A DNA stretch of 41,103 nucleotides, taken from sequence record PV696613.1; one strand, given 5' to 3'. Positions 33,733-33,832 of the stretch are shown piece after piece (position 1 is the stretch's first letter; every line of letters starts with the position of its first letter). This stretch comes from Escherichia phage Henuyfy11N. The translations under genes were made by a program, and so were the position numbers. A model generated the notes under the pieces. The model was not told the origin of the DNA. It saw nothing but the letters and a program-made list of their open reading frames with translations, and did not search any database.

Positions 33733-33761
33733 TTGACACCTAAGACTAATCCGACGATACT
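33733..33761 (+). promoter_or_regulatory. candidate promoter (TTGACA-N17-GATACT) between two terminators
   Basis: perfect -35, 17-nt spacer, 4/6 -10; would drive a roughly 65-nt transcript ending at terminator 33801-33832. Confidence 0.3.
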
Positions 33762-33800
33762 TAAATCACCTCCTGTTCCATCCCTCTGCTCTCCAGCTTT

Positions 33801-33832
33801 ATCCCGGCCCTGACCCAGCCGGGATTTTTTTA
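33801..33832 (+). terminator. rho-independent terminator
   Basis: ATCCCGGC-(9 nt)-GCCGGGAT hairpin followed by TTTTTTT. Confidence 0.6.

Follow-up and report, generated by a model that had tools for sequence, protein, structure and literature searches.

The lysis genes of Escherichia phage Henuyfy11N (PV696613.1) are followed by a promoter-like sequence, here called P1, that lies between two terminators, T1 and T2. An original prediction, made from the sequence of the whole 41,103-nt stretch analyzed here ("the window"), offered two accounts of positions 33733-33832: a gene for a small regulatory RNA (sRNA), or an incidental promoter-like sequence within a double terminator. Which of these is right? 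Comparison with related phages favors the sRNA gene, since both promoter hexamers and their 17-bp spacing are kept where T1 is missing. On this comparative evidence, the conservation of the locus is real, and the locus very probably forms a small transcription unit. Tentatively, and with slightly less than even confidence, we read it as an autonomous small gene that makes a base-pairing sRNA of ~58-65 nt, in the style of morons, the autonomous promoter-gene-terminator units found between conserved phage genes (Hendrix and co-workers). Its product is probably an undescribed phage small RNA that would join the known class of phage-encoded sRNAs.

A conserved unit behind the endolysin gene

Because the 601 bases around the locus match Escherichia phage BUCT789 at 99.8% identity and phage K1G at 93%, the window is that of a Kagunavirus (Guernseyvirinae). 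A BLAST search with positions 33690-33850 matches 120 Kagunavirus phage records, and in approximately two-thirds of these, the match begins exactly at the T of the TTGACA hexamer of P1. A Jerseyvirus-type unit is present in 323 GenBank records and a Serratia-type unit in three phages; overall, roughly 450 related phage genomes have kept the unit. In all three lineages, the promoter, 5′ arm, and hairpin occupy the same slot, directly after the endolysin stop codon and directly before an early promoter, P2.

The components of the unit are recognizable across large sequence distances. In Salmonella phage Jersey, the unit consists of TTGACG, an unrelated 17-bp spacer, GATACT, aaacctgCTCCTGTtgattCATCCCTCTagCTCCttt, a hairpin (ATCCCGGTA/TACCGGGAT), and U8; in Serratia phage Tsm2, it consists of TTGCCA, 17 bp, TACATT, gtctttgCTCCTGattgtCATCCatgCTCTaacaCTCCcagctt, a hairpin (AGCCCCGG/CCGGGGCT), and U7. 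Two divergent Escherichia coli phages (L032 and L060) have further different spacers and a -10 hexamer of CATACT. Distant relatives were gathered by endolysin anchoring, and among the endolysin-anchored loci from IMG/VR, the complete unit is found in 43 of 62, with one more in which it is split by a 105-bp insertion. When genomes are searched with a covariance model derived from the alignment, each yields a single copy, scoring 88.9 bits for window positions 33760-33832, 77 bits for Jersey, and 63 bits for Tsm2.

Within Kagunavirus, there is hardly any variation in the block that extends from P1 to the ATG at 33916. Nucleotide diversity among 28 distinct Kagunavirus sequences is 0.000 for the -35 and -10 hexamers of P1, 0.000 for the six bases 3′ of the -10, 0.005 for the T2 hairpin, 0.072 for the 5′ arm of the RNA, 0.081 for the P1 spacer, 0.224 for the P2 spacer, and 0.389 for the third codon positions of the endolysin gene. 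Since diversity differs among its segments, the block is not simply young; rather, particular segments are constrained. At the level of sequence comparison, the promoter, the hairpin, and the 5′ motif are thus shown to be under selection across a phage subfamily.

In one Kagunavirus contig (L047, positions 2190-2300, IMG/VR 3300015181_000003), and also in L022, an insert of ~105 bp lies exactly between the P1 -10 hexamer and the CCUCCUG start. It is bounded by 14-bp terminal inverted repeats (GTTAGGCGAGTAGT ... ACTACTCGCCTAAC) and looks like a miniature mobile element, which would lengthen or disrupt the RNA.

The P1 promoter

The original prediction of a TTGACA-N17-GATACT promoter between two terminators, downstream of the lysis genes, was correct in all its elements. 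P1 (33733-33761, plus strand) has the -35 hexamer TTGACA at 33733-33738, a 17-bp spacer, and the -10 hexamer GATACT at 33756-33761, a 10/12 match. Across lineages, at least five unrelated 17-bp spacers separate the hexamers, and the spacing is always exactly 17 bp. The -35 hexamer is kept as TTG[AC]C[AG] with all spacer types. In the -10 hexamer, A2, A4, and T6 are invariant and positions 1, 3, and 5 are variable (nAnAnT); sigma-70 recognition depends most critically on the -11 A and the -7 T.

T1 is missing from approximately two-thirds of Kagunaviruses and from every Jersey- or Serratia-type relative examined, and in these phages the -35 hexamer overlaps or adjoins the endolysin stop codon. 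Because most relatives are without T1, P1 is not an accident within a double terminator. The comparative evidence thus points to an independent promoter, as is typical of Hfq-dependent sRNAs. The P1 hexamers are identical to those of lambda PL, so strong transcription by the host polymerase would be predicted.

The P1 spacer has features of its own. In the Serratia phages (L034 positions 1393-1421, L123, and L124), it contains a perfect 14-bp palindrome, TCGGATTAATCCGA, and the Kagunavirus spacer (33739-33755) has TAATCCGA in common with this palindrome. There may be a regulator-binding site within the spacer.

The predicted RNA

The most likely transcription start site (+1) is A33768, which lies at the standard distance of 7 nt past the -10 hexamer, and the U-rich 3′ end falls at ~33827-33832. 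The predicted non-coding RNA (33768-33832, plus strand; ACCUCCUGUUCCAUCCCUCUGCUCUCCAGCUUUAUCCCGGCCCUGACCCAGCCGGGAUUUUUUU) would be ~58-65 nt long. Since the likely +1 is A33768, the RNA would start with ACCUCCUG; the start originally proposed, UCACCUCCU, is not supported. The predicted RNA folds into an unstructured 5′ arm followed by the terminator hairpin (folding free energy [ΔG] -15, z -2.7).

The 5′ arm (33768-33800, plus strand) is single-stranded and pyrimidine-rich, a candidate seed with CCUCCUG at its 5′ end, followed by CAUCCCUCU, CUCUCC, and a U-rich stretch. The 39 nt between the -10 hexamer and the T2 hairpin are essentially unstructured (ΔG -1.2). Pyrimidines make up 29 of the 35 positions at 33766-33800 (83%), which is one of just three such places on the plus strand, and this region has the largest C-over-G excess of the entire 41 kb. 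In Kagunavirus, both Jersey variants, and the Serratia phages, (C)CUCCUG comes directly after a purine located 7 nt past the -10, with the CAUCC and CUCU/CUCC motifs after it. CUCCUG itself is found 7-8 nt past the -10, and the bases between the -10 hexamer and the motif differ by lineage (TAAATCA, AAACCTG, GGTGTCG, GTCTTTG). Because of its position directly after this purine, the CUCCUG motif would stand at the extreme 5′ end of the RNA. The RNA thus has a predicted single-stranded seed whose (C)CUCCUG motif is fixed in Kagunavirus, Jerseyvirus, and the Serratia phages. The suggestion that the CU-rich 5′ region is complementary to ribosome-binding sites also holds: CUCCUG, the best-conserved motif across genera, contains the complement of the AGGAG core.

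Other readings of the 5′ arm were rejected. Mimicry of the 3′ end of 16S ribosomal RNA, suggested by a 10-nt identity (AUCACCUCCU) to the 16S sequence, is specific to Kagunavirus, and the identical stretch probably lies partly upstream of +1; in its place, Jersey and the Serratia phages have GCUCCUG, and phage RP180 has CACUCCUUG. A boxA/nut-like reading of UGCUCU was discarded, the G being an A in several Kagunaviruses.

Enterobacterial Hfq-dependent sRNAs typically have a free pyrimidine-rich 5′ arm, a U-rich stretch, a GC hairpin, and at least seven U residues. The predicted RNA is built in this way; its sequence features are directly visible, and binding by Hfq is predicted. In the proposed mechanism, host sigma-70 RNA polymerase would initiate at P1 and halt at T2, releasing the ~58-65-nt non-coding RNA. 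Most likely, the 5′ arm of this RNA would base-pair with purine-rich sequence at Shine-Dalgarno sites and start codons (AGGAG, GGAG..AGAG..AUG), and the pairing would either keep ribosomes from binding or alter the stability of particular messenger RNAs (mRNAs). Candidate targets would be the leaders of phage early operons and/or host mRNAs. Accumulation of the RNA, its association with Hfq, and its choice of pairing partners are all what we infer from this architecture. A bolder version, in which an early and abundant sRNA found throughout the subfamily uses CCUCCUG to mimic an anti-Shine-Dalgarno sequence and mask strong AGGAGG-type sites, either in host mRNAs for a translational take-over or in the early operons of the phage for an early-to-late switch, strikes us as rather improbable.

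The two terminators

Both terminators were located by a dedicated scan, the standard scan having missed them. T2 (33801-33832, plus strand) coincides with the hairpin and U-tract of the original prediction; it has an 8-bp stem (AUCCCGGC/GCCGGGAU), a 9-nt loop (CCUGACCCA), and U7 at 33826-33832 (ΔG -13.8, z -3.2), and the tails of its relatives range from 7 to 14 U. In an alignment of 27 distinct transcripts, 98.6% of cells in the T2 stem are paired, with compensatory changes in three of the eight pairs. The covariation score is 0.245, compared to 0.051 in shuffles; none of 500 shuffles reaches the observed score, and slid controls score ≤0.05. As in Hfq-dependent sRNAs, the terminator has a tail of at least seven U residues and a U-rich stretch before it, with UUUA directly upstream of the hairpin.

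T1 (33696-33727, plus strand), a 10-bp hairpin at 33696-33722 followed by UUUUAUUUU (ΔG -14.4, z -3.46), is the end of the lysis operon in Henuyfy11N. Since the unit is intact although T1 already ends this operon, T2 is not kept solely as a lysis-operon terminator. T1 lies within a segment, 33570-33732, that most relatives do not have: it is present only in K1G-type Kagunaviruses and is missing from K1H-type, Jersey, and Serratia phages. Phages K1H, fBC-Eco01, and RP180 have no T1, and their endolysin genes end at the TGA contained in TTGACA; therefore, 33570-33732 is an indel module, and only the K1G-type subgroup has the double terminator.

The indel module has several features in addition to T1. 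An 8-codon mini-open reading frame (ORF) overlaps the endolysin stop codon (ATGATGGACGAATATGAAGGCGTTTAG). A long hairpin, from AAGCCCC (33628) to GGGGCUU (33692), precedes T1 and shows a compensatory change from C-G to U-A in phage Schulenburg. The module may be a second structured RNA or an element of the 3′ untranslated region (UTR). Other cargo occurs at the same indel point, including a 30-amino-acid ORF in vB_VIPECOTPH05A and an ORF starting MALQEFTNP in two further relatives (L064 and L070).

Predicted pairing with start regions

For every annotated gene of BUCT789, Jersey, and Tsm2, the start region (-40 to +20) was folded together with the 5′ arm. The top-ranked start region is that of the first gene behind the early promoter P3, both in BUCT789 (-27.8 kcal/mol, of 67 regions) and in Jersey (-26.5 kcal/mol, of 69). 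In the window, this weak candidate phage target, the leader and start region of that gene, lies at 31058-31090, plus strand (AUCGAAACGAGAGGAGAGAGAAGAUGGGC; ATG 31082). Swapping partners between genera loses 6-7 kcal/mol, and the differences between RNAs match those between partners: UAGCUCC/GGAGCUA and AUUCAU/AUGAAU in Jersey, CUCUCC/GGAGAG and CCAU/AUGG in Kagunavirus. The start regions of these early genes are very purine-rich. The Jersey RNA is significantly complementary to the first-gene start regions of its three early operons (summed energy, P = 0.001), including a 12-nt perfect match (UGAUUCAUCCCU/AGGGAUGAAUCA) adjoining the AUG of Jersey_54 that none of 1,000 shuffles reaches. Only the Jersey homologue pairs significantly with its own early leaders, and P3 is missing from many Kagunaviruses.

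Other candidate targets were rejected. The start regions of the lysis genes rank 17th to 59th of 60-69 start regions. A site in the nuclease region (GGAGAGCAG(A/G)G, ~25240, minus strand), with 9-11 nt of complementarity, lies within upstream coding sequence and does not covary in Jersey. A whole-genome RNAduplex scan was uninformative, with long non-specific pairings dominating the output. In 5,426 complete E. coli genomes, blastn found neither a homologue of the RNA nor long complementarity to it.

One further match involves the gene at 30511-30711, whose ribosome-binding site, GGAGGUGAUUUAUG (30500-30513), is the perfect 12-nt complement of UAAAUCACCUCC (33762-33773). Half of UAAAUCACCUCC is probably upstream of +1, and GGAGGUGAU is a canonical extended Shine-Dalgarno sequence.

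Several results weigh against a base-pairing sRNA. The Kagunavirus RNA pairs no better than dinucleotide shuffles, either with the P3 leader (P = 0.31) or with the P2, P3, and P4 leaders in sum (P = 0.28), and the mean pairing energy of the window RNA over the 67 start regions equals that of shuffles. A combination of ranks over 53 ortholog groups in the three genomes yields no conserved phage target; the best combined p is 0.06, and 94% of shuffled controls are equal or better. Because of these outcomes, an anti-Shine-Dalgarno mechanism would have to be deduced from the CUCCUG motif and the shape of the RNA. The unit also frays in certain relatives: the middle motif, CAUCC, is missing in Serratia phage Smarc3, and Cornellvirus-like phages match the covariance model weakly (21-31 bits, in the same slot) and only through the 3′ module. 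This module consists of ...CCAGC(C)UUU, the hairpin, and the U tail, and it is preceded by other 5′ sequences, some with long inserts. Moreover, a lone 10/12 promoter match is not significant, ~6 being expected per genome; there are 9 in the window, compared to 5.9 ± 2.7 in shuffles. The significance of P1 comes from its position and its conservation in relatives, not from its match score. Finally, the GenBank records and other papers offer only in silico promoter and terminator calls, and the one Kagunavirus RNA sequencing study found resolves annotated genes only (PMC12645636).

Alternative explanations

The elements of the locus might act as transcription signals only. P1 would be a controlled promoter whose transcripts stop at T2, as those from lambda PR′ do at tR′, with a phage factor permitting read-through of T2 and of the terminator at 35766-35797 into the terminase and structural genes; the short RNA would be a by-product. 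We consider this unlikely, while noting that the layout fits: P1 is followed by ~60 nt to T2, by small genes, by a terminator at ~35790, and by terminase, head, and tail genes, with P2 intervening. The P1 spacer varies less than the P2 spacer (0.081 vs 0.224), and the Serratia spacer palindrome, with the part that it has in common with Kagunavirus, hints at a protein site in P1. However, when the ten proteins encoded downstream of P2 were compared with PHROGs, all but the terminase were of unknown function, and there was no Q/N-like antiterminator or annotated regulator among them. Nor does a conserved -10-like pause hexamer follow the -10 (TAAATCA, AAACCTG, GGTGTCG, GTCTTTG, GGTTTCT), and the downstream genes already have P2, 20 bp past T2, to serve them. 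This account would leave unexplained why the 5′ end of the RNA conserves CUCCUG. Another proposal is that the tract and hairpin are the 3′ end of the lysis mRNA, a Rho-loading or stability element plus an intrinsic terminator insulating P2, with the promoter of minor importance. It does not account for hexamers and spacing that are kept despite replacement of the spacer. The C-rich tract, at ~35-40 nt, is short compared to a rut site of ~60-80 nt or more and adjoins a strong intrinsic terminator, and it is unchanged although T1 already ends the lysis operon. We consider the proposal quite unlikely, even though the tract is unstructured and has the largest C-over-G excess in the window, T2 is the sole terminator after the endolysin gene in most relatives, and the U-run of T2 is positioned as an A/T-rich upstream element of P2 would be.

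Two further explanations concern the RNA and the promoter themselves. The RNA could be real and act by titrating a protein, such as Hfq, Rho, ribosomal protein S1, or an RNase, with no specific mRNA pairing. An unstructured, C/U-rich RNA with a long U tail would suit this role, hexamers identical to those of lambda PL predict that it would be abundant, and no specific target was detected for Henuyfy11N. The position-specific conservation of CUCCUG and CAUCCCUCU fits a pairing seed better than a sponge driven by composition, and we regard titration as very unlikely. Least plausible, to the point of being barely credible, is a chance promoter match, with function limited to the terminators. Chance alone would indeed give about six 10/12 matches at this genome size and composition. 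Nevertheless, the hexamers and the exact 17-bp spacing are kept in at least three genera while the spacer has been replaced at least five times, and hexamer diversity is zero across the 28 Kagunavirus sequences while neighboring neutral sites are variable.

Comparison with known systems

The base-pairing sRNA that we tentatively favor resembles several known phage RNAs in architecture. Like DicF (Qin), AsxR/AgvB, StxS, and IpeX, it would be within 50-90 nt and have its own promoter, an intrinsic terminator with a U tail, and a single-stranded seed; like other prophage sRNAs, it sits between protein genes of a phage genome. StxS and lambda 6S RNA are likewise short transcripts that end close to their promoter. 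Unlike the prophage sRNAs, it shows no sequence or model similarity to them (AgvB scores 16 bits, compared to a gathering score of 56). In addition, prophage sRNAs belong to temperate phages or prophages and have known targets, whereas this unit belongs to virulent siphoviruses and its RNA is predicted. The short phage RNAs c4 (P1/P7) and sar (P22) block the ribosome-binding site of a phage gene; unlike the present unit, they act on transcripts of their own locus, and the match to the sar model, at 13 bits, falls on T1.

Database searches gave no family assignment. At gathering thresholds, Rfam has no match to the window or to 13 related loci, and a relaxed scan returns sub-threshold matches driven by the terminator. 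The best of these is RF02278, the Betaproteobacteria toxic small RNA, at 22.8 bits compared to a gathering score of 50, mainly through the terminator. RF02278 RNAs have been proposed to pair with ribosome-binding sites. They are ~57-92 nt long and, like the predicted RNA, combine a pyrimidine motif (UCUCC) with a terminator hairpin; an RF02278 RNA is toxic when cloned in E. coli (PMC4603805). The family is chromosomal and from a different phylum; the present unit falls outside it.

Two gene architectures are also informative. DapZ and MicL are sRNAs derived from 3′ UTRs that have their own promoter. The K1H-type, Jersey, and Serratia relatives resemble this type, with the -35 hexamer at the endolysin stop codon and a terminator in common with the upstream mRNA. 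In Henuyfy11N, by contrast, T1 and 165 bp separate P1 from the endolysin gene, which makes the unit free-standing in this phage. The likeness to morons lies in the sigma-70 promoter and terminator, in the position between the lysis cassette and the next operon, and in a variable slot in which related phages bear other cargo. Unlike that of a moron, the cargo would be a non-coding RNA rather than a protein, and the unit, far from being sporadic, is near-universal in three lineages.

We found no report of an sRNA in the literature on Guernseyvirinae. The fBC-Eco01 record annotates P1 and the terminator as separate in silico features, the Jersey record annotates P2 only, and no RNA gene is annotated at the locus in the records examined.

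Significance

Among phages isolated for therapy and biocontrol of E. coli K1/O-antigen strains and of Salmonella, Kagunaviruses and Jerseyviruses are some of the most frequent, and phage engineers are now adopting them as small chassis (PMC11990801). If real, the RNA would be a compact, conserved regulator, one to be spared from accidental deletion or interruption in engineered phages. Because the unit comprises only 100 bp, with one promoter and one terminator, it would also offer an easy entry to the use of base-pairing RNA by a virulent phage. The evidence for selection on the promoter corrects annotations of the region as a plain terminator. Were the bolder version, with mimicry of the anti-Shine-Dalgarno sequence, true, the unit would define the first conserved family of trans-acting sRNAs in virulent enterobacterial siphoviruses.

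Neighboring genes and promoters

On the plus strand, the gene order is small early genes, two holins, endolysin (33069-33569), the sRNA locus, a block of nine small genes (33916-35768), terminase, portal, head, and tail; replication genes are on the minus strand of the window. There is no ORF of at least 30 amino acids on either strand within 33583-33849, no ORF starting with ATG, GTG, or TTG inside the predicted RNA, and no opposite-strand gene overlapping it. A search for transfer RNAs and transfer-messenger RNAs found none. A minus-strand mini-ORF encoding MEQEVI, with a GGAGAG ribosome-binding site, was rejected because its amino acids are not conserved and its length differs among relatives. 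A minus-strand promoter at 33935-33906 was likewise set aside, being confined to the variant found in the window and BUCT789.

The same slot holds different conserved sequences in Cornellvirus-like and other relatives (L076, L080, L086, L091, L068, L072-L074, L085, L089, L092, and L093). In the first four of these, the position is ~60-300 nt past the endolysin stop codon. Such relatives have a -10-like hexamer directly 3′ of the stop codon. One group has AAAUUCCACCCAGCCAGCCUUU plus a hairpin, and another has CGACAAUGAGUUUC.GAGGAGGUGGUCCCUAUCUCCC, a possible coding sequence for a micro-protein, MSF(A/R)GGGPYLP. Rfam has no match for these slot sequences.

P2 (TTGACT-17-TATATT, 33854-33882, plus strand) and its conserved leader, AUCGACAACGAGAACGGAG, which extends to the ATG at 33916 of the first small gene, together occupy 33854-33915 and lie outside the predicted RNA; the Jersey and fBC-Eco01 records already carry a promoter annotation for P2. 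The early promoters P4 (~29567-29633) and P3 (~31020-31082), together with a minus-strand promoter at 26120..26092 and one in a relative (L100, 39893-39952), have a common palindrome, TAATAG-N3/4-CTATTA, that overlaps the -10 hexamer (TACTAT). The leaders of P2, P3, and P4 all start with AUCGA(C)AACGAGA. The early promoters look like a set with a common operator and a conserved 5′ UTR, and the palindrome set corresponds to a motif of fBC-Eco01 that PHIRE reported as a "phage promoter" (PMC9825357). At 35766-35824, a strong hairpin with a U-run (GCCCUC-UACG-GAGGGC UUUU) closes the block of small genes and overlaps a promoter-like TGTACA-18-TATAAT, just upstream of the gene for the terminase small subunit; this region is a possible early/late boundary.

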